From the IMG/VR virus record IMGVR_UViG_3300012362_000001, positions 1-41,118 of that record: a stretch of DNA of 41,118 nucleotides. The stretch is one strand, 5' to 3'. Positions within the stretch are counted from its first letter, which is position 1, and each line of letters starts with the position of its first letter. The notes under the pieces were generated by a model. The model saw only the letters and a list, made by a program, of their open reading frames with translations, searched no databases and was not told the DNA's origin. Positions 1-41,118 of the stretch are shown piece after piece. A program made the translations under genes and the position numbers. The stretch comes from a virus.

Positions 1-123
1 CTTCTCTGCACTCTTCTCTCTTATCCACAGATCAGAATAAAGAGAAGAGTAGCTTGAACGCTTCAAAGCAACCGATTCAAGCCGCGCTTCAAATTGGGCT
101 TGCGCCCGTTAAAACGCCAGAAA
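1..123. repeat. Terminal direct repeat, left copy (identical to 40996..41118)
   Basis: Base-by-base comparison: 1..123 equals 40996..41118 with no mismatch. This implies a 40,995-bp circular or terminally redundant unit. Confidence 0.95.
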
Positions 124-302
124 AGAAACCGAGGAGCGGCCCGCTCATGAACGAGGAATCTGTCGAACGCTTCAAGGCCAACCCAGCTTACTCTGGCATC
201 GACGTCGACAAAGAGACTTGGAAGTTCGGCGAATGGTGTCGCACCAATGGCAAGCTCGAAACTGTCAGGAGATTCACCAATTGGCTAAACCGCGTCGCGT
301 AA
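3..302 (+). CDS. C-terminal part of a replication-initiator-like protein (continues from 40533 across the junction)
   Basis: The frame is open from base 3 and in phase with the ORF starting at 40533 once the 123-bp overlap is collapsed. That gives 254 aa in total. The track ORF 54..302 is only its TTG-started tail. The C-terminus reads ...GIDVDKETWKFGEWCRTNGKLETVRRFTNWLNRVA. Confidence 0.7.
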   Translation, partial: SLHSSLLSTDQNKEKSSLNASKQPIQAALQIGLAPVKTPEKKPRSGPLMNEESVERFKANPAYSGIDVDKETWKFGEWCRTNGKLETVRRFTNWLNRVA

Positions 303-2552: not shown

Positions 2553-3995
2553 ATGGAACGCGAGCCGTCTAACGTCTTAGAGCTCGCCGCAGCGCTCGGT
2601 ATAAGCCTGTACGGCTGGCAGGAAGAAATCCTGTTCACGATTGAACGGGCGGCCAGCCAAACACGCCGTAAGCTGGCCGTACGCGCACCAAACGGCGTCG
2701 GCAAGACTCAGCGCATCATAGCGATATCGGTCATTAGGTGGCTTCAACGGTTCGCGAAGGGAAAGGTGGTTATCACGTCCCATGACCAACGCCAAATTGC
2801 ACACCAGCTTTGGCCAGCGCTACTCGCATTTCAGCAACATTTCCCATCCTGGGAATATCGAAACGCAGATGGTAGACAAACTATTACAACCCCAACCGGA
2901 GGACGTCTGCTCGCTTACACGACTTCGGACCCGGGGCGGGCCGAGGGCTTCCATAGCGACACTGATTCGCCGTTGCTCATTATCGTCGATGAAGCGAAGA
3001 GCATCGAGGCGAATATTATCAAGGCGATTGATCGCTGCTCCTACAACGTCCTATTATACATTAGCTCGCCTGGCTGGATGGAAGGTCCGTTTTACGATGC
3101 ATTCTCGAAACCGGGATTTATCCAGTTCCACGCTGGTCTCGCGGACTGCCCACATAAATCGAAGGAGCAGATTGAGGATATTAAGCGCACCTACGAAGGT
3201 GATCAATCCTTCATCGATTCAACCTTGCACGGCGAATTCATGCGACACCCGGATGGAGTGCAGTACGTCCTCGACCTGGTGGACGCTGATGGGGCCCAGC
3301 AAGCGCACATAGACAAGATCTACGGTGCACGCGTCGCAGGCGTTGACGTCGCTGCCGGGCGCTGCCAGAACGTAATTTGTAAACGGAACGGGAACCATGT
3401 CGAACGAATTCAAGCCTGGCGTGAGAAAGACACAAACGCTGCGGTTGGACGGTTTGTGCGGCTGTTCAATGATCTGGCTCTTAAGCCCGGGGACATCTGG
3501 CTGGACGTGGACGGGCTTGGCATCGGGTTCTACAACGACTTCGCAGCCGTGCAATGGCGCGTCTGCCAGTACCGCGGCGGGGGTAAATCTCCGCATCCCC
3601 GTTACGCGGATCTGAACTCGTACTGCTGGCATTCGACTGCGGACAAGATCAGGAAGCATCAGATCATCCTGCCGGACAACGCTATCCTCAAAGCGCAGCT
3701 GTGTGCGCGCAGGGTGCGCTACAAACCAGATGGCCGCCTCTGGCTTGAGAGCAAAGAGGACATGGCTGGGCGCGGGGTTGAGTCGCCGGATGTCGCGGAC
3801 GCGTTCTGCATCGCGTTCGGTGTCCAGCCTGCACAATCAACTTCGTGGGTTGAGCAAGAGAGCCGGTTTGCGGAAATAGCTAAACAACACGGCTGGCAAT
3901 ACAACCAGAGCGATGACCCTGATGAACCACGGACCCCAGGCGGGTACCAGGAAAGCACGGCTCTAGGGTCGATGGGTGTGCACAGTGAATGGTGA
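2553..3995 (+). CDS. terL: Terminase large subunit
   Basis: 480 aa. Walker A-like RAPNGVGKTQ and Walker B-like LLIIVDEAKS. The C-terminal RNase-H-like nuclease has acidic motifs VAGVDVAAG, WLDVDGLGIGF and SPDVADAF. Confidence 0.92.
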   Translation: MEREPSNVLELAAALGISLYGWQEEILFTIERAASQTRRKLAVRAPNGVGKTQRIIAISVIRWLQRFAKGKVVITSHDQRQIAHQLWPALLAFQQHFPSWEYRNADGRQTITTPTGGRLLAYTTSDPGRAEGFHSDTDSPLLIIVDEAKSIEANIIKAIDRCSYNVLLYISSPGWMEGPFYDAFSKPGFIQFHAGLADCPHKSKEQIEDIKRTYEGDQSFIDSTLHGEFMRHPDGVQYVLDLVDADGAQQAHIDKIYGARVAGVDVAAGRCQNVICKRNGNHVERIQAWREKDTNAAVGRFVRLFNDLALKPGDIWLDVDGLGIGFYNDFAAVQWRVCQYRGGGKSPHPRYADLNSYCWHSTADKIRKHQIILPDNAILKAQLCARRVRYKPDGRLWLESKEDMAGRGVESPDVADAFCIAFGVQPAQSTSWVEQESRFAEIAKQHGWQYNQSDDPDEPRTPGGYQESTALGSMGVHSEW

Positions 3996-8775: not shown

Positions 8776-8897
8776 GCGCCGAGATACCGGACAGGCGCTA
8801 TATCCCAAATAACAATAGGTGCATTCACTGTGGCCGCCCTTGGGTTGCTTTCCCTTCTATCTGTCCTGATTGCGTAGAGGTTTGCTTGTGTCATTAG
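8772..8897 (+). CDS. Possible tiny zinc-ribbon ORF (41 aa)
   Basis: ATGA-coupled. RCIHCGRPWVAFPSICPDC gives CxxC...CxxC. It would overlap the 5' end of the portal ORF, so the portal may start at GTG 8888. Confidence 0.3.
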   Translation: MSAEIPDRRYIPNNNRCIHCGRPWVAFPSICPDCVEVCLCH

Positions 8898-10900
8898 AAA
8901 TCTTTAAACAGATCAAGTCCGATATCGAAGAGCGGCGCATGTGGGAGGACAGGCAAGCGACAGCGTACAAGCTCCGGTTTGGTCAAGTCAAGCGGCGCAC
9001 GAAACCCTTTAAAAACGCTGCGGATTACACCTGGCCGCTCGTGGACATGTACATCGAGAAGCAGAAACCTGCCTACGTCGAGCAGGCGCTCGGACCGGAG
9101 CTGATAGCTTCATTCTTCAGCAAGAACCCGCAAGGCGACGGATTCACGCACGCGGTTGCCGAGTGGTTCGATTATCGCGTAAAACAGAAGAGCAACTTCA
9201 TCAAGGCTCTTTACCACGTGATTGATCAGCACATGCAAGGTGGCAAAGGGTTCCTGAAGACCTACTGGGATTGCGATCTAAACTGTGTCCGGCACCAGAT
9301 GATCCCAGGGCCGCTCTTCGTCGTACCGCCGTGGACTGAAGAAATTGACGATGGATACTCGAAAGCCGACCGGGCGTGCCACATCATGCACATGTCGACG
9401 CTGACATACGAGCGGCTCGGGCAGACATTGGGGTACAATCTGGACGAAGATTTTATCAAGTCGATATCCGGACGCGGCGAAGAGAAGATGTACGAGCAGG
9501 CCAAGGAACTTAAGGAAGGTATCGCGTACCACAAGAAAGACGACATGATCGTTTTGTGGGAAGTCTACGAACGGTTGCCATCCGGCAAACTTAAGATCCA
9601 CACATTTAGCCCGATGCAGCCCGAAGAAAAGGTGCGTGATGATTTCATGTTCCCCTACGACCATGGAAGAATACCTATCGTGGCTTACGATTTTGAGATT
9701 ACTGATCCCGGATTCTACTCTACGCGAGGGGTATCGGAGATCCTGGCATTGCCGCAGAGCATCCTGAAAATGCTATTGGATATGCAGATGGATTACATGA
9801 TCTACTGCAACCGGCCGGTCTGGAAACCAGGGCCAACAAATCCAGGAGTAAATTACGAGAACCTCGAGATTGTTCCAGGCCAAGTGATCAACGCAGACGT
9901 AGTACCGCTTGAATGGCCGCAGCCCACAATCGACTTCTTCCAGGCACAAGAACAGATTCGTTCGGTCTGGGAACAGAGAATGGGATCGGCGGACTATGGT
10001 ATTGGGAACGAAGAGCAGCAAGGCGAGGGGCACAAGACGGCCACCGAGATTGTCCAGCTCGGCGCGGTCAAAGAGAGCACGGCAACACTAAAGGGCAGGT
10101 TCTTCGGCGGCTCGCTTACCGAGAGCCTGAAAATGCATTGGTCGCTTGAACTGCAATACTGCAAAAATGATCTGAAGTACTTCTATCAACGGGAATACAA
10201 GCAGCTCGATCAAGGAGCATTGCGAGATTATTACCAGCTTGAGGTCAATGGCGGGAAGGACGGATACTCGCGCGAGAAGCATCTCCAAAAACTGATTCAG
10301 CTTTGGCAAACGTTCCAGCAAAGCCCGAATGTAAACCTACCAGAGCTTGTGCGCCTAATCCTTGAGAATGTCGATACTCAACTTGCGAAAACGCTATTCG
10401 TTCCGACTGATGTTGGCCAGAACGATCAGATGGAAAAGCAGGCGAACGAGATTAACGCAATGAAGCTCGGTTTTAACCCGCAACCTGACCCTGACGACAA
10501 CCACATTGCGCATATCCAGGCCATTGAAGTATTTAAACAGTACGCGCGCGGCAACCCGCAGGCGCAGGTAGGACCGGATGTCCAGATCCGAATCATGCAG
10601 CACGAGGACGCGCATATCGCAGCCGAGAAACAAGAGAACCCGCAACAGTACAAGGCGAATAAGCCCATGCTGGACAAGATCACAAGCGACAATAAAGCGC
10701 TCGTTCACGCTATCGCTCGAACTGTTGAGCAAGCCCTCCGCCAGCAATCGCCAAATGGCGAACAAACATCAGCTGGACAGCCTGGGCCTCCGGGACCCCA
10801 ACCCGGCGCAACCCAGGTACCTGCTGCGCCTCCGCCAGGTCCACCTATTGGATCGCCCACAGCAGGCATGCAAGGTTCGCCTCCGAGAACCTTTGTCTAG
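8870..10900 (+). CDS. Portal protein
   Basis: 676 aa, the largest ORF between terminase and the scaffold/capsid pair. It has a Pro/Gly-rich C-terminal tail. The call rests on size and synteny. The start is uncertain (TTG 8870, GTG 8888 or ATG 8939). Confidence 0.8.
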   Translation: MRRGLLVSLEIFKQIKSDIEERRMWEDRQATAYKLRFGQVKRRTKPFKNAADYTWPLVDMYIEKQKPAYVEQALGPELIASFFSKNPQGDGFTHAVAEWFDYRVKQKSNFIKALYHVIDQHMQGGKGFLKTYWDCDLNCVRHQMIPGPLFVVPPWTEEIDDGYSKADRACHIMHMSTLTYERLGQTLGYNLDEDFIKSISGRGEEKMYEQAKELKEGIAYHKKDDMIVLWEVYERLPSGKLKIHTFSPMQPEEKVRDDFMFPYDHGRIPIVAYDFEITDPGFYSTRGVSEILALPQSILKMLLDMQMDYMIYCNRPVWKPGPTNPGVNYENLEIVPGQVINADVVPLEWPQPTIDFFQAQEQIRSVWEQRMGSADYGIGNEEQQGEGHKTATEIVQLGAVKESTATLKGRFFGGSLTESLKMHWSLELQYCKNDLKYFYQREYKQLDQGALRDYYQLEVNGGKDGYSREKHLQKLIQLWQTFQQSPNVNLPELVRLILENVDTQLAKTLFVPTDVGQNDQMEKQANEINAMKLGFNPQPDPDDNHIAHIQAIEVFKQYARGNPQAQVGPDVQIRIMQHEDAHIAAEKQENPQQYKANKPMLDKITSDNKALVHAIARTVEQALRQQSPNGEQTSAGQPGPPGPQPGATQVPAAPPPGPPIGSPTAGMQGSPPRTFV

Positions 10901-24041: not shown

Positions 24042-25072
24042 GCTGGTTTGATACCGCCCTGGCTGCTTGGTACCGCTCTAAGGAGCAGGAGCGCGCTATT
24101 AACGCGCAGGGGATTGAGCAAGCAGGACAAGCTTTGACGCAAGGCTTGCAACAGGCCAGGCAGGACAATATCGCAAATCAAGTATCTCGATCGCTAGTAA
24201 ACTCCGGGGCTTATGCTGATCAGAACTCAGGTGCCAACGCGCCTCGGGCGGGACTAGTGAGCGCTGGCACAAATCCAATCACGGGCGCAGTAAATAGAGT
24301 AGCTGCGGGAGTACCGACGGCGGGAACTGCTCCTGTTGGCGGTGGCGGAGGCATGCTTGGATTCCAACTGCGCAACGCATTGGCTAACCAAGGCGTCGAG
24401 AGGGATCTCAAACGCGCCCAGATAGGCTATTACGGAGCGCACGGGGCCGCTGCATTGCAGGGTGCAGCGTCGAATGAATCTTGGCGCAAATCAGAACAGG
24501 ATCGAGCGGATGCTCAGGCCGCAGCTATTAGGGCCGCTACTGCTGGTGGAGGCCCTGCCGCGGCGAGGACTCAAGCGCAAGCGCAAAGAGATGCGCTGAT
24601 GCAGGCACAGAAGGACGCAGAAGCAAAAGCGCAGACACCGGAAACTCTAATGCGCGATTTTGACGTGAATCATGGGAAAGGCGCAGCTCAATCCTTTTAT
24701 GATGCATATACGAACAATACCGGAGCGCGAGGCGATTTCTCAGGTGGTAAATGGATCGGGAACCCGAACGGGCCGTTATTTACTGCAGACCCAGAGGCGC
24801 AGGCATATGGGCAACCTCCAAACGCGGCTGATATAAAAGCGGTTCCGATTACGGAGCTCGACGCTTACAGAACGAACTTACAAAAAGTTCAAGCAGCAGG
24901 CGGAAGGATTGTTCCGCCGATCGTAATGCCAGCACAAGCACCCGGACAGTCAGCACCAGCGCAAGGTGGGAGCGTTCCGACATTTCAAACTACTCAGCAG
25001 GCATTGCAAAGCGGACTTCCGCGCGGCAGCCCGTTCCAAGATCCAACTGGCACAATCCGATACATGCCGTGA
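24038..25072 (+). CDS. A/Q/G-rich protein (344 aa), internal-virion candidate
   Basis: GTGA-coupled. Low-complexity helical composition similar to 20636..22435. Confidence 0.7.
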   Translation: MSWFDTALAAWYRSKEQERAINAQGIEQAGQALTQGLQQARQDNIANQVSRSLVNSGAYADQNSGANAPRAGLVSAGTNPITGAVNRVAAGVPTAGTAPVGGGGGMLGFQLRNALANQGVERDLKRAQIGYYGAHGAAALQGAASNESWRKSEQDRADAQAAAIRAATAGGGPAAARTQAQAQRDALMQAQKDAEAKAQTPETLMRDFDVNHGKGAAQSFYDAYTNNTGARGDFSGGKWIGNPNGPLFTADPEAQAYGQPPNAADIKAVPITELDAYRTNLQKVQAAGGRIVPPIVMPAQAPGQSAPAQGGSVPTFQTTQQALQSGLPRGSPFQDPTGTIRYMP

Positions 25073-25073
25073 T

Positions 25074-27791
25074 ATGGCTGCAGGCGAAGTTCTTCTTAAT
25101 GGAGCGCAGTTAGATGATGGCGGGACAACCAGTCATGCTACTGCTCCAAACGTGCTCGATGGGAATTCTCTCACCTATTGGCATACTGATCCTCAGGCCA
25201 ATACTGGGTATGTCGGAATCGATGCTGGAGCATCGTGCTCACTTACGCGAGTAAGGTTGTCGGCATTTGGAGGCTCCGAGGACGCATTGGTTGGCGGGTT
25301 AGTGCAAGGCGGTTCGTCCAGCGCATTTGCGCAACAATTAGGATTTCAGCAGGCTAATGGCGTAGGAGTAAACGCCACCAATCAAACCAGTGTTCCAGTC
25401 ATCTTTACTGGCGTCCAAACCGCAGGAAATGCCAACATCATTTTCATTTTCAGCAGCGCTTCCGCGGTTATAAGCGGAGTCACCGATACTAAAGGTAACG
25501 TATATACGTTCTTGTATAGGGATAATGTCGCGTCTGGTGCACACGTATCTTGTTACATTGCCACTGGAATAGTCGCTGCCCTTGCTAATGCCAATACGGT
25601 TACAGTTTCCTTGTCAACTGCCAGCGATTATCCTACAGTATTCATATCTGAGTATTCTGGTATTTCCGGAACAGGTTTGGCCACAATAAATGCTCATTCG
25701 TCTAATAGCGGGACCGGTACAGCTATTGATTCTGGCAACATAACGACGACTAATCCAAATACTGTATTAGTGTCTATAGGTGGATTCGGTGATTCACCCG
25801 CAGTAAGCACTGGTCCAGGATTCATACTGAATAAAAACCTTTCTCCGTGGGGCGCGGTGATGGAAGAAAGGCCGGTAATAAGTACCGTTACATCGTCAGG
25901 TTCATTCACTATTAGTACTAGCCAAAGCTGGAATTGTACAGTGGCGGCGTTTAATTTGACTGGCGTATACGATCCAAATGCGTTCCTATTTGTCGCGGCC
26001 AGGCCGCTTACAGGAACCTTGTTAAACGAGTACTCAATTACAGCCGCTCCGCTATTTCGTTATTATCGTTATAGTGCCCCATCTGCCTCCAACGGCAACC
26101 TGGCTGATCTTGATTTAATCGTACAATACACGGCGGGTGTAACTGCAGCAGCGGTATCGCCAACCATACTGCCAACTGGCCGCTCTTTCGATTTGCCGAC
26201 AGTTATAACCCTTAGCAGCATAACAACGGATGCGGCCATTTATTACACCTTAGATGGCACCACGCCAACTGTTGGTTCGATTCTATATAATGCTCCGTTT
26301 GTATTGAGCGCCAGTGCCACACTTAAAGCTATAGCCGTTAGTCCAGGACTCACCAATAGTCGTGTAACGAGCACGAAGTTTAACATACCATCAAGTCTAG
26401 TGTCACTGAATAGTCAAATCGATGACCGAAATTATAAGACATGGGCTGTTGATCCCTTTTTTTTCCTAGATCCTAATAGTGGTTGGTGGTACATGTATGG
26501 AATCAACCTTGATTGTAACGGGATTGCTACATTCGGCTATCTAGGAGTTGATACATATAAATCTGCCGATTTGCGTAACTGGATATTCGTTAACACAGTT
26601 ATAGGTCCATCGCTTGGTACTCAGGTGAACAGTTCCACTTACTTCGCACGCCCTTGGGTGGCGTATAATGCATCTACTGCAAGATACGTCCTGTGGATTA
26701 ATTCTGCGAGTCGGCCAACTGTGTATACGGCTCCATCGCCAGAAGGGCCGTGGACGTTTGTTGCACAATATACCAGCTTAAATGGATGGATTAGCAATGG
26801 AGATCCGTGCTGGTTTTTAGATTCGGATGGAATTAGTGCATACTTGGTATTCACTTCTAATTTCAACGCTGTGTTCAATAAGCTCACGGCCGCATGGACT
26901 AATGTAGATGGAGTCAACTTTGCGTCCTATGATGTAGCATCGACATTTGGCGAACAGGGCGGCTCAGGAGACGGGACAAAATTAGATGGTCCGCACATGT
27001 TTAAGAGGGGAAATACCTATTTCTTCATGTCCAACGCGCAATGGAATTGGGCTCCTATGGTGAATTGCTACGCAACCAGCTCTAATCCTCTAGGGCCGTG
27101 GACAAATAAAGGGAACCCGTTTCAGGCGGTGCAGGGTGGCAACCCGGATAATTCTGTTGCATTTGGTGCTCAAAATAATTATCCAATATTCATTCCTGGA
27201 AGGAACGCATTTATCTATACTGGCGATGCGTACAATACTGGGCTACCCGGCACTGTCAGCACGTCCACTACGGCTAATTTCCAGGCATGCACGTTGTTTT
27301 ATCTTCCTATCATTTTTCCTACGGCGTCCACTATGTCCATAGCATGGAATCCATCATGGGCACTGGATAACGTATTCCCGACGTTATCGGGAGCTCCGGT
27401 TGCACCCAATAATCTAAAGTTGAGTACTTTGGGAAGTGTTACGGCAGGAATTAAGATCAGTTGGAATAATTCTGAACCGAATCCTCATGCGCTCTACGTA
27501 GATCGCTCTAGCGACATGCTTTGGACTATCGGAGTCAGATCCTATTCTGTGCCATTCGGAGCAACATCATTTACGGATACATTCGCGGTTCCTGGCCAAA
27601 AGTACATTTATCGCGTGCGAGCAGTTAACGCGAATGGCACCGCTAATTCGCCGGACGTAACGTCCGGAGGAACATTGGTGACATTCAGGCCATCTAAAGC
27701 AAGGCGGCTTTACAATCTGGAATTGCTAAAGGATGAAATGACGAAGGATGAATACGCCAAACGCGAAGCGTCGATTCTAAATGAGCGATGA
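25074..27791 (+). CDS. Tail spike or fibre with a GH43-like five-bladed propeller
   Basis: 905 aa from ATG 25074 (track ORF 24966..27791). The N-terminal discoidin-like segment is NVLDGNSLTYWHT. A chitobiase-C-like beta-sandwich follows (AAIYYTLDGTTPTVGSILYNAPFVLSASATLKAIAV). GH43-like blades are DPFFFLDPNSGWWYMYG, GDPCWFLDSDGISAYLVF and LDGPHMFKRGNTYFFMSN. The C-terminus is an FN3 domain. Confidence 0.85.
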   Translation: MAAGEVLLNGAQLDDGGTTSHATAPNVLDGNSLTYWHTDPQANTGYVGIDAGASCSLTRVRLSAFGGSEDALVGGLVQGGSSSAFAQQLGFQQANGVGVNATNQTSVPVIFTGVQTAGNANIIFIFSSASAVISGVTDTKGNVYTFLYRDNVASGAHVSCYIATGIVAALANANTVTVSLSTASDYPTVFISEYSGISGTGLATINAHSSNSGTGTAIDSGNITTTNPNTVLVSIGGFGDSPAVSTGPGFILNKNLSPWGAVMEERPVISTVTSSGSFTISTSQSWNCTVAAFNLTGVYDPNAFLFVAARPLTGTLLNEYSITAAPLFRYYRYSAPSASNGNLADLDLIVQYTAGVTAAAVSPTILPTGRSFDLPTVITLSSITTDAAIYYTLDGTTPTVGSILYNAPFVLSASATLKAIAVSPGLTNSRVTSTKFNIPSSLVSLNSQIDDRNYKTWAVDPFFFLDPNSGWWYMYGINLDCNGIATFGYLGVDTYKSADLRNWIFVNTVIGPSLGTQVNSSTYFARPWVAYNASTARYVLWINSASRPTVYTAPSPEGPWTFVAQYTSLNGWISNGDPCWFLDSDGISAYLVFTSNFNAVFNKLTAAWTNVDGVNFASYDVASTFGEQGGSGDGTKLDGPHMFKRGNTYFFMSNAQWNWAPMVNCYATSSNPLGPWTNKGNPFQAVQGGNPDNSVAFGAQNNYPIFIPGRNAFIYTGDAYNTGLPGTVSTSTTANFQACTLFYLPIIFPTASTMSIAWNPSWALDNVFPTLSGAPVAPNNLKLSTLGSVTAGIKISWNNSEPNPHALYVDRSSDMLWTIGVRSYSVPFGATSFTDTFAVPGQKYIYRVRAVNANGTANSPDVTSGGTLVTFRPSKARRLYNLELLKDEMTKDEYAKREASILNER

Positions 27792-33907: not shown

Positions 33908-34173
33908 ATGTGCAAGAACAGGAATACGCGACGTACAGAGAAGTTAAGGCACGCTTCGCGATGAACCGGTTCATGCTTTATTCACTGGCTCGCGAGGGGA
34001 AAATCAAAAGCGTGTCACTCAGGAGACCCGGCAAGCGGTGGGGCATCCGGCTATTTCACGTGCCGAGTGTCCGTGAATTTCTGGAATCTCTAGAACAAGA
34101 AAAAGCGCCCGATCAACCCTCAAGGGACCGAGCGCTTCGAAGGAAGGAAAACAAATATGACAACTCAAAGTAA
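33904..34173 (+). CDS. Excisionase/MerR-type helix-turn-helix protein (89 aa)
   Basis: ATGA-coupled internal ATG of track ORF 33712..34173. YATYREVKARFAMNRFMLYSLAREGKIKSVSL...RLFHVPSVREFLES matches the HTH_17/Xis-like pattern. Confidence 0.7.
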   Translation: MNVQEQEYATYREVKARFAMNRFMLYSLAREGKIKSVSLRRPGKRWGIRLFHVPSVREFLESLEQEKAPDQPSRDRALRRKENKYDNSK

Positions 34174-35176
34174 AGCACTTGTCACTTTAGAAGACAAGGC
34201 AAAACAATTGGACAAGGTCGCGACCAAGTTCAGCGATTCACTGAATTTTGCCGCAAGTCCATTTGGTGCGGCAATTGCGCTGTCTCAAAACATCTCCGTT
34301 CTCCGGGAGCTCCTCGACGACGGTATCATGGCGGAAATCATGAGACTCGCCGATAGCCCGCTCGGATTCCTGACCGACAAAAAGGACAGAGGCGGATATC
34401 AAGCTCGCGAGGTTAGGGACGCGATTATCGAGGCGACGCTGCGCGGCTTTCGCGTGTGCGGCAATGAATTCAACATCATCGCTGGCCGATTCTACGGCGC
34501 AAAGGCAGGATTGCATAGAAAGGTGATCAGCTATCCGGGAGTAACTGATTTCAAGGAGACTTTCGGGATTCCCAAGATGTCTGGGGACAAGGGCGCCATC
34601 GTGGTTGCCAAAGCAACCTGGAAACTCAATGGCACCAAGGATGCGCTCGAGCGCGAATTCGCAATCCGAGTCAATTCTGGCATGGGTGTGGACGCCATTA
34701 TCGGCAAAGGACAGCGTAAACTTTACGCGGCAGTCCTAAATCAGCTTTCGGGAATCATCACGCCGGATGGTGAAGTCGAACAGGACGCAAATGGTGGACC
34801 GGTAAAGACTCTGACGTTCACAAAGGAAGGACCAAAGATTTTTGCTTCGGAAGCACCGCAAGAGGCGTCATCGCAACCCACAGAGGCGCAAGAGGAAACA
34901 CCTAACCTGCCATTTGAATCAAATACTGCCAAAGCCGTTAAACCAGGAGAGATCGAAGATGATTTCATTCACAGAGAAACGGAGCTCGATCAGTTAAAGC
35001 TTCTCATGGTTAAATACCAAGTCACGACAGCTGAGATCCTGCGCGTGTGCGAGAATAATCACTGGAAGGTTAATAGCCTTGAAGAGATTACGCCCTACTA
35101 TATCAGGAATTTTGTCGAGTATTGGGACGATGCAATGTTTGAGATAAATGCGTTTCGGAAGGAGGCGGCAAAGTGA
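34157..35176 (+). CDS. Putative single-strand annealing protein (RecT-like)
   Basis: 339 aa. IIEATLRGFRVCGNEFNIIAGRFYGAKAGLHRKV and ...GKGQRKLYAAVLNQL loosely resemble RecT-family landmarks. It lies upstream of a RecB/Cas4-type exonuclease. The function is inferred. Confidence 0.6.
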   Translation: MTTQSKALVTLEDKAKQLDKVATKFSDSLNFAASPFGAAIALSQNISVLRELLDDGIMAEIMRLADSPLGFLTDKKDRGGYQAREVRDAIIEATLRGFRVCGNEFNIIAGRFYGAKAGLHRKVISYPGVTDFKETFGIPKMSGDKGAIVVAKATWKLNGTKDALEREFAIRVNSGMGVDAIIGKGQRKLYAAVLNQLSGIITPDGEVEQDANGGPVKTLTFTKEGPKIFASEAPQEASSQPTEAQEETPNLPFESNTAKAVKPGEIEDDFIHRETELDQLKLLMVKYQVTTAEILRVCENNHWKVNSLEEITPYYIRNFVEYWDDAMFEINAFRKEAAK

Positions 35177-36091: not shown

Positions 36092-36316
36092 ATGAACAAG
36101 ATGTTAGTGATGAGTCCTCTTGGGCACGCATTGCAGCTTACTCCTTGCGGGGACAACGAGAATGTGTTCGTGGAAAGGCCGATAGAGATTAATTTACATC
36201 AGGCGAAGTACACCCAAATGTTGGCTGAAAATAACTGGCTGGTAAGAGAGGGATTTGTTGAGCTAGCCATAGGCAGTATAACGCTCGAACCTAACCCTGA
36301 ATTGGAAGCACTATGA
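36092..36316 (+). CDS. Hypothetical protein (74 aa)
   Basis: ATG ORF whose stop overlaps the next ATG. Confidence 0.6.
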   Translation: MNKMLVMSPLGHALQLTPCGDNENVFVERPIEINLHQAKYTQMLAENNWLVREGFVELAIGSITLEPNPELEAL

Positions 36317-37455
36317 AAGAAGAACGAGCAGGTTTAGGCAGTGGCAGTGGATACGCCAGGGATAAGCATTGCGCCGCTAATCGCAAGATGGAGCGTATTG
36401 CCAAGGAGACCGGAAAGGAGCCGCCATCAGAAAAGGACGCGGAGGACGGGGACGTCGTTCACCAAATTCTTGTTTATCCAGATCCCGCTCACCCTTGTCA
36501 TCCTAGAAATGTAACTCCCGAGCAATATGAATCGGCAATGTTTCTTGCCGACAGGCAGGCCAAAATCTGGGATGAGTTTTTAGCCGGTAGGGTAGGCGGA
36601 GGAATCACGCCGCCAATAAGAGAAAAGCGTTTCTGGCTATACAAGGGTATCACACCGATACGCTCAAGTAAGCCTGATTTTGTTCTAATCGTGATGGAGC
36701 CTGACGGCGCCGATATCCTGATAATAGATCACAAAACCGGGCACGCGGAGATTGAACCACAAGAGGCTGACACATGGGCGCAGCTGGAGGAGTACGCCCT
36801 CACGGTCGCAATCAACACGCAGCATCCAAGGGGGATCAAACGCGTTCGGGCTGTGATCAATTCGCGTTGGAGCGGGGTGCACAGCAAGGATTTTCCGCCA
36901 GAGTACTTAATCGCTGTTCATCGAGAGCTTTTGGCGACGATAGCAGCCGGTGGCGTGAAAGATCCTAAGGCCACGCCGGGCTGGTACTGCCGATACTGCT
37001 CCGGCCGTCTGGTTTGCCCATCGGCCGTGCTTGAGATCGAGCTCGTGGAACGCAGGACGGCCTTGCCGTTACCGGAAGGAAAAGAGGGCGAGGTGTTTAT
37101 TGATCAAGTTAAACGAGTCAACTCGCTGTGTGATCAGATCCTAAGGCATTACAAGAAACGGCTCTACGCTGAACCTGGATGCGTAGGCGCATGGCAGGTA
37201 AGCGAGGGGGATGAGTACCGATCAATCAAGGATCTGGAGGGTGCATTCATGGCGCTAGTGAGCGACGGCCGCATTACCCAGGACGAATTCATGGAATGCT
37301 GCGATGGACACATAGGCAAGCTTGAAAAGAAGTATTGCAACAGGGCTAAGAAACCAGCGGTCCAAGCGAAGCAAGATTTCAACGATCTACTGGCAGACTG
37401 CATCGAGATGAAGCGCAGGGCAGGGTCCTTAGAGAAAGTGAAGGAATTGACATGA
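36313..37455 (+). CDS. PD-(D/E)XK exonuclease, Cas4/RecB-like, with an Fe-S-type cysteine signature
   Basis: 380 aa. Contains ...DFVLIVMEPDGADILIIDHKTG (D...D-x-K) and QLEEYAL (the QxxxY motif). There is one N-terminal Cys (KHCAA) plus a C-terminal CRYCSGRLVC (Cx2Cx5C). Confidence 0.85.
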   Translation: MKEERAGLGSGSGYARDKHCAANRKMERIAKETGKEPPSEKDAEDGDVVHQILVYPDPAHPCHPRNVTPEQYESAMFLADRQAKIWDEFLAGRVGGGITPPIREKRFWLYKGITPIRSSKPDFVLIVMEPDGADILIIDHKTGHAEIEPQEADTWAQLEEYALTVAINTQHPRGIKRVRAVINSRWSGVHSKDFPPEYLIAVHRELLATIAAGGVKDPKATPGWYCRYCSGRLVCPSAVLEIELVERRTALPLPEGKEGEVFIDQVKRVNSLCDQILRHYKKRLYAEPGCVGAWQVSEGDEYRSIKDLEGAFMALVSDGRITQDEFMECCDGHIGKLEKKYCNRAKKPAVQAKQDFNDLLADCIEMKRRAGSLEKVKELT

Positions 37456-38008: not shown

Positions 38009-38698
38009 ATGAATATTACATTTAAAACACTGCCAAAGGGTGATCGCAAAGATGCCCGGCAACCCGCAACAATACTTGAACCGTGCCCATTCTGCGGCGC
38101 GAAAGGATTCCTTGGCGCTGAGGCCACTTACTCACATAACGCCAGGGCTGGGGAAATGGATTACGCGATTCGGTGTGGCAATTGCGATTCGCTCGGTCCA
38201 TGGGGTGCAACGGCATATGTCGCGGCTAGTCTCTGGAACAAGCGGGAAGAGCCTCGGAACACACATCGCGGAAGATCGGCAGTCGTAAAGGTGGCCACTG
38301 CGGCCATCGTAGCGCTGTTGGCGTTCATGGTGCCAGTGCAAGCAGGGGAAGACTGGAGCGCATTTCCGACAACTCCACCCAATGTAGGGAATAATCGTTT
38401 CTGGTGCTATGACAGCAGGTATTTTTCTTATCAGGATTCTCCTAAACCTGCGGCTCAAGTTATTGACTCGAGTCCTGGAGTGATAGATGACCCGGCCTGT
38501 CGAGGGCTGATAGTTGCCCAGCTTAAAGATGTAAATAGCACGGTAGCTGATTGGATAATTGAATACAACCGGGCGTTCATGCTGCCGGATAGTAACGGCG
38601 GCGCTAACGTTTATCATGCCACCAACCGAAAGAACGGCAAGATCTGGGAGATAATCGTTGCTTTCCATTTTGAACAGGTACAGGCGCATGACAAATGA
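38009..38698 (+). CDS. Lar-like zinc-ribbon domain, TM segment, DWSAFPTTPP motif and C-terminal domain
   Basis: 229 aa. LEPCPFCGAKG...IRCGNCDSLGPWGATAYVAASLWNKR matches the Lar restriction-alleviation family pattern. The TM segment is VVKVATAAIVALLAFMVPV. GEDWSAFPTTPP starts at aa 113. Confidence 0.8.
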   Translation: MNITFKTLPKGDRKDARQPATILEPCPFCGAKGFLGAEATYSHNARAGEMDYAIRCGNCDSLGPWGATAYVAASLWNKREEPRNTHRGRSAVVKVATAAIVALLAFMVPVQAGEDWSAFPTTPPNVGNNRFWCYDSRYFSYQDSPKPAAQVIDSSPGVIDDPACRGLIVAQLKDVNSTVADWIIEYNRAFMLPDSNGGANVYHATNRKNGKIWEIIVAFHFEQVQAHDK

Positions 38699-38891
38699 GA
38701 CTCGGGCAAAGCTGAGCTACTGGAAGCTTGGCTCGAGAAATCCGCGTTCCAAGCTATCAGTTAACGAAGTCCTCCGAATAAGAGAATTGCGAGCCAGTGG
38801 CGTAGGGGCCGGAACGATAGCTCTGAAGTTCGGGGTCAGTAAAAACACCATCATCAGCATAGGGACCGGAAGAATCTGGCGGCATATTTAA
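38688..38891 (+). CDS. Small helix-turn-helix DNA-binding protein (67 aa)
   Basis: Internal ATG of track ORF 38658..38891. SKLSVNEVLRIRELRASGVGAGTIALKFGVSKNTIISIGTGRIWRHI is a sigma-70 region 4-like HTH pattern common in phages. Confidence 0.65.
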   Translation: MTNETRAKLSYWKLGSRNPRSKLSVNEVLRIRELRASGVGAGTIALKFGVSKNTIISIGTGRIWRHI

Positions 38892-39110
38892 ATGATCGAC
38901 TGGGACAAAGCTGAGATTCACGACATTCAGCGCTTCGGGAAATGGCTCTACTGGGCTGAGGAATGGGCCACGTTCAAGACTCAGACCAATGACGAGCTTA
39001 AGGAATCGTGGCGCTGTGAGCTCCGGTACGTCATGCTCGAGCAGGACAGGCTGCGCGAAGCGATCAACGCCCGGAAATGCATGTACACGAGCCGGGGACC
39101 GTCAATGTGA
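38892..39110 (+). CDS. Hypothetical protein (72 aa)
   Basis: ATG directly after the upstream stop. Confidence 0.55.
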   Translation: MIDWDKAEIHDIQRFGKWLYWAEEWATFKTQTNDELKESWRCELRYVMLEQDRLREAINARKCMYTSRGPSM

Positions 39111-39123
39111 TGCACCCCGTTGC

Positions 39124-39151
39124 TTGACATGTGGAACGCATGTGGTAAAGC
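39124..39151 (+). promoter_or_regulatory. Candidate internal promoter upstream of the methyltransferase
   Basis: TTGACA (39124-39129), 16 nt, then TAAAGC (39146-39151). It shares TTGACATGT-N13-TAAAG with the promoter candidate at 33602. Confidence 0.35.
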
Positions 39152-39171
39152 GTAAACAAAACGTTTATGAC

Positions 39172-40047
39172 ATGAGGAAATACAAGATTAATGCCGTAGA
39201 GGCTCAACTCGAGCTTTTCTCAGCGGAAGCGGCAGAGATAAGGAAGTTGCATACCGAACTTTTAGGGCACGTTCGAATTACGATTAAACAAGCGATTCGA
39301 ATAGGGGAATTGCTTACGGCCGTCAAGGAAGGGCTCGAGCACGGCCGCTGGCTGCCGTGGCTCAAGGCTAATGTCGAGTTTCACGAAAGAACGGCTCGCA
39401 GATATATCCGAGTCTTCGAGAACCGAGAACAACTCAAAACGGACAGCGTGTCCGATTTGACGGACGCCTACCGGCTGCTGGCGGATAAAGTGCCTAGAGA
39501 AGAAAAGCAGGCCAGGGACTTCGCTGATTTCGAGTGGCCACAAGGTAAATTTAGGGTGTTGTATGCTGATCCTCCGTGGACATACAACGATCATAGATTA
39601 GGCAGCGTGGATGGAGGAGGAGCCACGGGAACATACAGCACAATGTCTTTAGAGGGAATTTGCAACCTTGACATACCCAATATCGCATTGCCTGACTCGG
39701 TCTTGTTTTTATGGATAACTTCACCTTTACTTCCTGATGGGCTCACCGTTATGGGTAGATGGGGTTTTACTTATAAAGCGAGTTTTATTTGGGATAAGGT
39801 CCAAGGATTCAACGGCCATTACAATGATGTCAGGCACGAGCTTTTATTAGTTGGCACAAAGGGCACATGCCTGCCTGAAGTAAGTGAGCTTTTAGATAGT
39901 GTGATCGAAATTAAGAAAACTAATCATTCCGAAAAACCAGAGAGATTCCCTGAAATAATTGACTTACTCTACCCTAGTGGCCCACGGTTAGAACTGTTTG
40001 CCAGAAAGCAAAGAAAAGGGTGGAAATGCTTGGGCAACGAAGCCTAG
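39172..40047 (+). CDS. MT-A70-family N6-adenine DNA methyltransferase with an N-terminal DUF3102-like domain
   Basis: 291 aa from ATG 39172 (track ORF 38989..40047). Contains LYADPPWTY (the DPPW motif), FLWITSP, WGFTY...IWDK, HSEKP and LELFARKQRKGWKCLGNE. The N-terminus HGRWLPWLKANVEFHERTARRYIRV is DUF3102-like. Confidence 0.9.
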   Translation: MRKYKINAVEAQLELFSAEAAEIRKLHTELLGHVRITIKQAIRIGELLTAVKEGLEHGRWLPWLKANVEFHERTARRYIRVFENREQLKTDSVSDLTDAYRLLADKVPREEKQARDFADFEWPQGKFRVLYADPPWTYNDHRLGSVDGGGATGTYSTMSLEGICNLDIPNIALPDSVLFLWITSPLLPDGLTVMGRWGFTYKASFIWDKVQGFNGHYNDVRHELLLVGTKGTCLPEVSELLDSVIEIKKTNHSEKPERFPEIIDLLYPSGPRLELFARKQRKGWKCLGNEA

Positions 40048-40532: not shown

Positions 40533-41118
40533 ATGGGCTTCACCAAACTCTTTAGCGACATTCTTTGTTCTTCCGTCTGGAACGAGGACGACAAGACGCG
40601 CATTGTCTGGATAACGCTGCTCGCCTTACGCGGCCCGAACAACGTAGCGCGCGGCTCAATTGACGGCTTAGCGCATCAAGCCCGCGTATCGATTGAAGAC
40701 TGCGAGAAAGCTGTAACGAAGCTTTCGTCACCAGATCAGCACTCAGGGGACCCGGAATTCGACGGGCGCCGAATCGAGAAGGTGCCACACGGCTGGCTTA
40801 TCCTGAACGGCGAGAAGTACCGGGTGCGCAAGGACGGTGAGGACCGCAAAGAGTACATGAACGAGTACATGCGCCAGTACCGCCGTAAACAGTCCGTAAA
40901 CAATCGTAAACAATGTAAACAAAACGTAAATGTTTACGTAAACAAAAACGTAAACAATGTAAACAAAAAGGGCCAAAACGTAAACCCTTCTCTCTCTTCT
41001 CTGCACTCTTCTCTCTTATCCACAGATCAGAATAAAGAGAAGAGTAGCTTGAACGCTTCAAAGCAACCGATTCAAGCCGCGCTTCAAATTGGGCTTGCGC
41101 CCGTTAAAACGCCAGAAA
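40533..41118 (+). CDS. Replication-initiator-like DNA-binding protein, 5' part (open at window end, continues at 3..302)
   Basis: ATG 40533 with no stop before 41118, so it is absent from the ORF track. The N-terminus FTKLFSDILCSSVWNEDDKTRIVWITLLALRGPNNVARGSIDGLAHQARVSIEDCEKAV...GRRIEKVPHGWLILNGEKYR resembles a winged-helix phage replication/DnaD-like module (from recollection). The low-complexity linker coincides with the iteron array. Confidence 0.75.
   Translation, partial: MGFTKLFSDILCSSVWNEDDKTRIVWITLLALRGPNNVARGSIDGLAHQARVSIEDCEKAVTKLSSPDQHSGDPEFDGRRIEKVPHGWLILNGEKYRVRKDGEDRKEYMNEYMRQYRRKQSVNNRKQCKQNVNVYVNKNVNNVNKKGQNVNPSLSSLHSSLLSTDQNKEKSSLNASKQPIQAALQIGLAPVKTPE
40885..40985 (+). repeat. 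Iteron-like array, putative origin of replication
   Basis: GTAAAC occurs at 40885, 40896, 40906, 40915, 40938, 40950, 40959 and 40980. GTAAAT is at 40926 and an inverted GTTTAC at 40932. Spacing is mostly 9-12 bp. Confidence 0.6.
40996..41118. repeat. Terminal direct repeat, right copy (identical to 1..123)
   Basis: Same comparison as the left copy. The repeat lies inside an open reading frame that runs off the window end. Confidence 0.95.
41005..41045. other. Bulged 14-bp dyad next to the iterons (also present at 10..50)
   Basis: ACTCTTCTCTCTTAT pairs with ATAAAGAGAAGAGT, with one bulged C and a 12-nt loop. It lies in a polypyrimidine tract about 20 nt downstream of the last iteron. Confidence 0.4.

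Follow-up and report, generated by a model that had tools for sequence, protein, structure and literature searches.

Helically phased repeats inside an initiator-like gene of an uncultured phage as a probable origin of replication

The virus record analyzed here, a stretch of 41,118 nt that we refer to as the window, raises the question why a short hexamer, GTAAAC, recurs about once per helical turn of DNA inside a gene for an initiator-like protein. The first-pass annotation, made from the letters alone, had likened this arrangement to gene O and the origin of phage lambda. Our analysis leaves little doubt that the array is a functional protein-binding DNA element, and we consider it likely that it is the replication origin of the phage, bound by the product of the very gene in which it resides.

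The gene can only be read once the ends of the window are understood. As the first 123 nt are exactly identical to the last 123 nt (1-123 = 40996-41118), the window represents a circularly assembled phage genome of 40,995 bp. An exact overlap of 123 nt would fit the k-1 overlap of a de Bruijn assembly with k = 124, a setting that we assume. A terminal repeat marking true genome ends at the array is unlikely because relatives carry the gene in the middle of their contigs. The 254-aa open reading frame is real only if the window is circular, since reconstruction and translation let it cross the junction, from 40533 to 41118 and then from 124 to 302. The features concerned are:

1-123, plus strand: terminal overlap copy, identical to 40996-41118; it duplicates part of the tract, the dyad and the DnaA box described below
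40533-41118, plus strand: initiator-like gene, first 586 nt (aa 1-195), from the ORF reconstruction; continues at 124
124-302, plus strand: remainder of the initiator-like gene (aa 196-254, stop codon at 300-302), from the ORF reconstruction

Nearly all long ORFs of the window lie on the plus strand. Most ORFs of the phage are without any match, and those with matches in Pfam or PHROG characterize the genome as phage-like:

2553-3995: probable packaging ATPase, about 2.5 kb downstream of the array
8870-10900: portal-like protein
24966-27791: GH43 tail-enzyme-like protein
36313-37455: PD-(D/E)XK exonuclease
38009-38698: Lar
38658-38891: small helix-turn-helix (HTH) protein
38989-40047: MT-A70 methyltransferase

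In agreement with the first-pass annotation, no gene for a helicase, primase or polymerase was recognized in the Pfam and PHROG scans of the ORFs; a novel replication enzyme may be hidden among the unmatched ones. Searches of PDB sequences with the ORFs at 2553-3995 and 34157-35176 gave no matches. A gene for a P-like or DnaC-like helicase loader was not found downstream of the initiator-like gene, where the ORFs at 218-556, 613-900, 897-1406 and 1612-1935 are without PHROG match and the ORF at 897-1406 lacks a Pfam match as well. Cumulative GC skew had been suggested as a means of locating the origin and fails in this respect: most 1-kb bins have a positive skew, and no turning point is seen in the cumulative curve.

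The repeat array itself is made up of the following elements:

40884-40986, plus strand: iteron array with the consensus YGTAAACAA, from motif positions, cluster statistics and phasing
40924-40939, unstranded: dyad ACGTAAA-TG-TTTACGT, made by the lone inverted copy, GTTTAC at 40932

All of the copies that had been counted within about 100 bp are present in 40885-40985, namely eight GTAAAC (starting at 40885, 40896, 40906, 40915, 40938, 40950, 40959 and 40980), one GTAAAT at 40926 and the inverted GTTTAC, and the latter does create the near-palindrome noted before. Repeats on the same strand follow one another at distances of 11, 10, 9, 11, 12, 12, 9 and 21 bp. The spacing of 9-12 bp given in the first-pass annotation thus holds for all gaps except the last one, which measures 21 bp or two turns. 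The count of GTAAAC on both strands of the window exceeds expectation (30 vs 12.4 +/- 3.8 in dinucleotide shuffles), and nine of these 30 copies fall in the array. The eight GTAAAC within 101 nt form the top hexamer cluster of the genome; the next unrelated cluster has four copies, and the maximum cluster in 200 order-3 Markov genomes comprises three to four. The nine same-strand sites are phased with a best period of 10.6 bp and a vector strength of 0.87, which has a chance of about 0.001 under unphased spacing, and all of them lie no more than 2 bp off one helical face. Within the gene, the array starts at nt 353 and occupies nt 353-453, and its copies are read in two frames, either as GTA-AAC (Val-Asn) or as xGT-AAA-Cxx (Arg/Cys-Lys-Gln).

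Which kind of protein is interrupted by such an array? An AlphaFold2 model, built with 22 homologues, divides the 254 residues into three structured parts, whose coding regions are:

40533-40832, plus strand: winged-helix N-domain (aa 1-100), pLDDT mostly >90
40833-40901, plus strand: basic helix (aa 101-123, GEDRKEYMNEYMRQYRRKQ), leading directly into the first repeats
144-299, plus strand: helical C-domain (aa 203-252), modeled with confidence

The predicted winged-helix topology is H20-31, E38-40, H43-50, H54-65, E81-84 and E87-90. The linker of aa 127-190, encoded by the repeats and the tract that follows them, is predicted to be disordered. The linker peptide quoted in the first-pass annotation is correct on translation, and the placement of the array between a winged-helix N-domain and a C-domain is borne out by the model. 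Foldseek searches against the PDB found generic winged-helix DNA binders only (E >= 0.05). The named viral neighbours in BFVD are mostly annotated as replication initiator, DUF1376, HTH or RepL and include one O protein, so that the comparison of the predicted structure with initiators, proposed earlier, did lead to proteins of the initiator type. A profile search of PDB sequences revealed no solved relative. The window protein has no Pfam or NCBIfam match, which includes Phage_rep_O, Rep_3, Phage_rep_org_N and DnaD, and 22 family members are likewise without Pfam match, Phage_rep_O (PF04492) included.

Among PHROGs, the full-length window protein matches only weakly (phrog_10469 at E = 0.017). 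Matches of the N-domain alone are also weak (E = 8e-4 to 0.3); they fall at equivalent N-terminal positions of proteins annotated as 'DnaD-like helicase loader', 'replisome organizer' and 'replication initiation protein'. Protein P0043 matches phrog_10469 at 1.3e-29 over aa 81-272, and in several family members it is the C-terminal part that matches PHROGs with the annotations replication initiation, O-like or DnaD-like loader. P0043 also shares phrog_345 with lambda O. We have withdrawn the transitive link to lambda O via this group, as the N-domain alone does not match phrog_345 and the match of P0043 resides mainly in the C-terminal half. C-terminal halves vary within the family, and the C-domain of the window protein occurs fused to a DUF1376 N-domain in protein P0050. 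Phage initiators typically show such shuffling of modules. Taken together, the model points to an initiator architecture.

The family to which this protein belongs is very large and undescribed, and is known only from uncultured phages or prophages and environmental sequences. While a word-index search retrieved 165 homologues of the window protein, an exhaustive search with the N-domain yielded 8,608 cluster representatives, defined at 50% identity, at E <= 1e-3 and 5,833 at E <= 1e-10. Viral contigs contain relatives, and so do genomes classified as Verrucomicrobiota, Planctomycetota, Acidobacteriota, Gemmatimonadota, Proteobacteria and other groups; the best match lies in a genome classified as Verrucomicrobiota. 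No family relative is present in 50,697 GenBank phage records or in 72,556 plasmid records, the latter searched by tblastn. In the literature that we searched, neither the protein family nor in-gene iterons with 10.5-bp phasing are described.

If the array had a function as DNA, it should be recognizable in these relatives. We gathered about 190 related loci, scored 160 distinct genes in a linker window of gene nt 281-620, used 1,893 flanking windows as the control set and counted chains of an identical hexamer only where the spacings are not all multiples of three. Chains of at least four exact copies occur in 65 of the 160 relatives (41%) vs none of the 1,893 control windows, and chains of at least three copies in 96 relatives (60%) vs 34 control windows (1.8%). 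By this chain criterion, about 40% of the relatives have no exact array of at least three copies. Among the spacings, 10 bp was counted 106 times and 11 bp 123 times, with 20 and 21 bp appearing as doubles. When whole viral loci of about 8 kb are considered, the best such array falls in the linker window in 36 of 73. A typical array alternates 11 and 10 bp, so that a double unit of 21 nt spans two turns of the helix and seven codons and the reading frame switches from one copy to the next; the clearest case is locus L052 with ten copies of GTAACG. The close relatives L081, L082 and L083 have kept GTAAAC in three or four direct copies, and the array of L082 opens with the perfect palindrome GTTTACGTAAAC.

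Elsewhere in the family the core differs by lineage: GTAAAC, GTCAAC, GTGAAC, GTTAAC, GTAACGC, GTCACG, ATGTCCC, TCCGAC, CGTTACC and GTTGCA have been found. The encoded linker peptides change along with the core, while position and phasing stay. The first-pass annotation had named relatives that conserve the linker and lose the repeat phasing as a result that would speak against the hypothesis; the opposite is seen, in that the 10.5-bp phasing is kept and both core and peptide change. Because core and encoded peptide differ by lineage and the geometry is constant, the constraint acts on the DNA, and the conserved property, as judged by comparing sequences, is the geometry of the DNA and not the peptide. 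We regard this comparison as the decisive evidence and as strong support for the lambda-like interpretation.

The DNA that follows the last repeat carries further elements:

40986-41021, plus strand: polypyrimidine tract (33 of 36 pyrimidines), encoding PSLSSLHSSLLS; proposed unwinding region
41005-41045, unstranded: dyad/hairpin with perfect 10-nt arms, ACTCTTCTCT (41005-41014) and AGAGAAGAGT (41036-41045), from inverted-repeat search and folding
41016-41028, plus strand: DnaA-box consensus TTATCCACA (41016-41024) followed by GATC (41025-41028); the sole perfect DnaA box in the window

Both the tract and the bulged hairpin that had been reported to follow the array are real. The hairpin arms extend with a bulge and the DNA fold amounts to -10.4 kcal/mol (z = -2.5). 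The tract has a G+C content of about 50% and is not A+T-rich. A stretch of 30 nt with at least 80% purines or pyrimidines follows the array in 75% of 65 relatives vs 6.6% of the controls. In most cases the purines are on the coding strand; the window and L082 belong to a minority with pyrimidines there. The strand that carries the purines varies between close relatives. It is conceivable that the tract merely encodes a low-complexity peptide linker. The DnaA box, which is of the E. coli type, sits between the arms of the dyad, 31 nt after the last repeat, and its function is uncertain. As a feature of the family, DnaA boxes were rejected: they are not enriched at the array position in relatives, where six of 138 boxes with one mismatch fall within 6.3% of the sequence.

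One pair of relatives is particularly instructive with regard to the question which part of the protein reads the repeats. Over 6.5 kb, loci L052 and L068 share about 90% identity, and their initiator-like proteins do not differ at all in aa 1-103, yet gene nt 309-468, comprising the basic helix and the repeats, have been replaced outright, so that GTAACGC is present ten times in L052 and ATGTCCC seven times in L068. Since the winged helices are identical and the cores differ, the winged helix alone does not set the specificity for the repeat. A second replaced segment, an ORF about 1 kb upstream (91 vs 87 aa), was considered as the source of the reader and dismissed, as nothing about it suggests DNA binding. 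In the sub-family of L052 and L068, three classes of the basic helix pair with three cores, and such pairs are found across the family: EYM..YM goes along with GTAAAC or GTTAAC, EYL..K(Q/K) with GTCAAC, EYR.KW with GTGAAC, N..RQ.R with GTAACGC and EA.RK.RY with TGTCCC. At all levels of N-domain identity the sequence identity of the helix is higher in pairs of proteins that share a core, e.g. 0.55 vs 0.24 at 80-90%, these pairs being non-independent observations. The basic helix (aa ~104-123) is therefore most likely the candidate for the specificity determinant on the basis of this co-variation. Recombination needs conserved flanks, and the joint inheritance of helix and repeats could thus be hitch-hiking.

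A bolder proposal is that the basic helix, and not the winged helix, reads the core by a simple residue-to-base code, that helix and repeats form a portable cassette of about 160 nt and that one monomer is bound per turn. We put this forward tentatively and regard it as rather doubtful at present. If it were true, recombination could move the cassette between otherwise identical initiators and thereby readily change origin specificity; the family would offer initiator-origin pairs that are naturally orthogonal to one another; and binding of one monomer per helical turn would be unlike the dimer-per-iteron mode of lambda O and plasmid Rep proteins. The natural specificity variants, one clean cassette swap included, provide material for studying initiator-origin recognition and its evolution.

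Copies of the core are not restricted to the array. In the window, one further site deserves mention:

39123-39168, plus strand: possible operator consisting of TTGACA and then CGTAAACA-aaac-GTTTAT, an inverted pair of the repeat core at 39151-39168

It is located directly upstream of the methyltransferase start codon at 39172, ahead of the block of genes that runs from the methyltransferase to the initiator, and contains the only copy of CGTAAACA outside the array. Its interpretation as an operator is speculative. Several relatives have further copies of the in-gene core shortly before the gene, L034 for instance four copies of TAACGC at -37 to -7. Such upstream copies would fit an initiator that regulates its own synthesis.

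These copies also lend themselves to another explanation, according to which the array is a regulatory protein-binding site, an operator or roadblock, that is read by the gene product or by a different protein such as the HTH protein encoded at 38658-38891, with the origin residing elsewhere. The phased direct repeats just upstream of the gene in some relatives (L034, L006, L027, L078) and the core-like inverted pair near TTGACA upstream of the operon in the window speak for it, as does the swap between L052 and L068, where the identity of the winged helices in the face of different cores means that another protein could be the reader. On the other hand, the array has a fixed position in the inter-domain linker of an initiator-type protein, just as in lambda, it is accompanied by a strand-asymmetric tract, and the genome contains no other comparable repeat cluster that could act as origin. 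Known iteron replicons, moreover, use the same sites for regulation and as origin, so that the two possibilities are in part no rivals. We therefore judge a purely regulatory site to be unlikely.

Two further explanations are far less probable still. The repeats could be a by-product of replication slippage in a low-complexity linker, with selection acting on the flexible linker only and the DNA being without function. The encoded region is indeed predicted to be disordered, close relatives differ in copy number, with 3 to 10 repeats, and the (GAAGCA)n, (CAGATA)n and polypyrimidine tracts next to the array code for typical linkers such as EAEA, TDTD and PSxSS. Slippage of a peptide repeat, however, gives multiples of three in a single frame, whereas the hexamer alternates frames at 10 and 11 bp here; the phasing matches the helical repeat of DNA, and unrelated cores share geometry and gene position across hundreds of lineages with none of the 1,893 control windows doing so. 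We thus hold this origin of the array to be very improbable. Hardly any more can be said for a partition centromere, comparable to the ten 11-bp repeats of R1 parC, or for a pac site of the terminase. Type II centromeres consist of about ten direct repeats of 10-11 bp and so have the same geometry as the array, the contig ends fall 10 nt past the last repeat, and the gene for the probable packaging ATPase follows at a distance of about 2.5 kb. Against this stand the lack of ParM, ParR or ParA matches (Pfam, PHROGs) among the scanned ORFs upstream and downstream, the presence of an integrase in the relative L083, the appearance of the 123-nt terminal overlap as an overlap of a circular assembly, and the position of the array in most relatives, which is in the middle of the contig and always inside the initiator-like gene.

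The reading of the array as an origin is supported by a phased cluster that is not due to chance, by its conservation in the family, by the initiator-type protein, by the lambda-like position, by the conserved tract, by the natural swap of helix plus repeats between L052 and L068 and by the upstream copies of the core in some relatives. We infer the following sequence of events. The 254-aa protein would bind the approximately ten GTAAAC repeats via its winged-helix domain and the basic helix. With one repeat per turn, bound proteins would line up next to each other along a single face of the DNA and may build up a nucleoprotein filament like that of lambda O at ori lambda. Strain in this filament could help to open the adjoining polypyrimidine-polypurine tract and the dyad, upon which the helical C-domain would recruit the replicative helicase of the host or its loader; host DnaA at the neighbouring TTATCCACA may assist. 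The reader, i.e. the basic helix, and its site would be passed on jointly, in a single cassette of about 160 nt. For annotation, the combination of the family N-domain, 10.5-bp phased repeats and then a purine-rich tract offers a signature for thousands of environmental phage genomes.

How does this arrangement relate to well-known replicons? In P4 ori/crr and in R1 parC, direct repeats of 8-11 bp recur every ~10-11 bp, and a protein binds to them co-operatively on one side of the helix. P4 relies on a large primase-helicase (alpha) and parC is a centromere bound by ParR; neither type of protein is found in the window, and unlike the array described here, the P4 and R1 arrays lie outside the gene for the binding protein. 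An origin inside the initiator gene is realized in phage SPP1, where oriL is located in gene 38 for G38P, and in phage P1 with RepL and oriL. Weak PHROG matches of the N-domain and the BFVD neighbours named RepL point in the direction of such replisome organizers and of DnaD-like initiators, but the matches of the window protein are not significant and there is no Pfam match to Phage_rep_org_N or DnaD.

In iteron plasmids (F RepE, pPS10 RepA, R6K pi, RK2 TrfA), a winged-helix initiator binds direct repeats beside an unwinding region and a DnaA box, and inverted copies of the repeat serve as operators for autoregulation. The DnaA box at 41016-41024 and the inverted pair at 39151-39168 are possible counterparts in the window. 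Plasmid iterons measure 17-22 bp, follow one another at intervals of about two turns and are located outside the rep gene; Rep proteins contain two winged-helix domains (Rep_3). In contrast, the model of the window protein shows a single winged helix, and the protein has neither a Rep_3 match nor a relative among the 72,556 plasmids.

The closest parallel in layout is provided by phage lambda, whose origin lies in the middle of gene O, with iterons followed by an A+T-rich tract and with extra iterons lengthening the protein (PMC7466680). Differences are obvious. Four to six lambda iterons of 18 bp with internal dyad symmetry are spaced 20-24 bp apart, and the GenBank record of lambda shows four of them at spacings of 20, 24 and 23 bp, whereas the arrays of the new family consist of 3-10 direct repeats with a core of 6-9 bp, one per helical turn. 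The lambda tract is A+T-rich and that of the window has about 50% G+C, and the adjacent P-like loader of lambda has no counterpart found downstream in the window. Homology to lambda O is undetected at the sequence level, hhalign giving a probability of 0.2% for the family profile against this protein. The lambda O/ori-like architecture put forward in the first-pass annotation accordingly stands as far as layout, likely logic, position and conservation in relatives are concerned and does not extend to homology or repeat geometry. In both systems, the array resides inside the initiator gene, in the linker between a DNA-binding N-terminal part and a C-terminal part, at almost the same place (nt 353-453 here vs nt 349-433 in O); in both, iterons are followed by a strand-asymmetric tract and are accompanied by a palindrome, and the number of iterons varies between relatives and alters the length of the protein (PMC7466680). 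An origin within the initiator gene is thus textbook knowledge for lambda. New are the undescribed protein family, the distinctive geometry with one iteron per turn and the apparent portability of reader and site as a cassette, and the same principle would be realized here in a simpler and more regular form throughout a very large family.

A perfect DnaA box lies beside the array of phased GTAAAC repeats that forms the proposed replication origin inside the initiator gene, and the repeat core recurs as an inverted pair further upstream:

41016-41028 (duplicate at 21-33), DnaA box of sequence TTATCCACA and, immediately after it, GATC
39123-39172, TTGACA followed by CGTAAACA-aaac-GTTTAT, with the ATG of the MT-A70 methyltransferase directly after

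The box is situated between both arms of the dyad that comes after the array and is the sole perfect match to the DnaA-box consensus within the window; a DnaA box at this position is not conserved among the relatives. Outside the array, CGTAAACA occurs only once in the window, in the element at 39123-39172, which could be an operator of the block comprising the genes for the methyltransferase, a 169-aa ORF and the initiator.

The termini of the window overlap exactly over 123 nt (1-123 = 40996-41118), which, if k = 124 is assumed for the assembly, would match k-1. The circular junction is located 10 nt past the last repeat of the array, possibly because repeats break the assembly graph, and in many relatives, too, the initiator gene resides within 0.5-3 kb of one contig end.

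Three genes of the window deserve mention:

38989-40047, MT-A70 adenine methyltransferase with a DUF3102 domain fused at the N-terminus
24966-27791, protein of 941 aa whose domains include Fn3_assoc/CHB_HEX_C and glycoside hydrolase family 43
2553-3995, 480-aa ORF with a weak, below-threshold match to ResIII (SF2 ATPase)

L081, a related locus carrying an initiator-family gene, shares with the window the arrangement Lar, methyltransferase, unknown ORF, initiator. The 941-aa protein is probably a tail-associated enzyme degrading polysaccharide and could give a clue to the surface glycans of the host. Judged by its position, the 480-aa ORF probably encodes the large terminase; it is possible that it specifies a helicase instead, a reading that touches the claim that the phage lacks a helicase.

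The 12-nt tandem repeat AGTACATGNNNN (40852-40880, 2.4 copies) codes for the EYMxEYMxQY stripe of the initiator's basic helix. It arises because Tyr and Met codons recur every four residues along this helix, as does the TACATG-N6-TACATG pattern retained in close relatives. Some related phages have long in-frame tandem repeats with 12-nt or 9-nt units and up to 50 copies in genes neighbouring the initiator (L049 2714-3110, L054 56-404, L035 5048-5600, L045 6032-6180); these repeats bear no relation to the iteron arrays. Besides the cassette of basic helix and repeats, the 90% identical loci L052 and L068 differ by one replaced segment (2879-3154 and 2954-3217, respectively); the small ORFs that it encodes, 91 aa long in L052 and 87 aa in L068, are unrelated.

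Some relatives feature a phased array with the same or a related core directly 5' of the initiator start codon, which either accompanies or replaces the in-gene array:

L034, 2722-2752
L006, about 1513-1553
L027, 3954-3975
L078, 2906-2950
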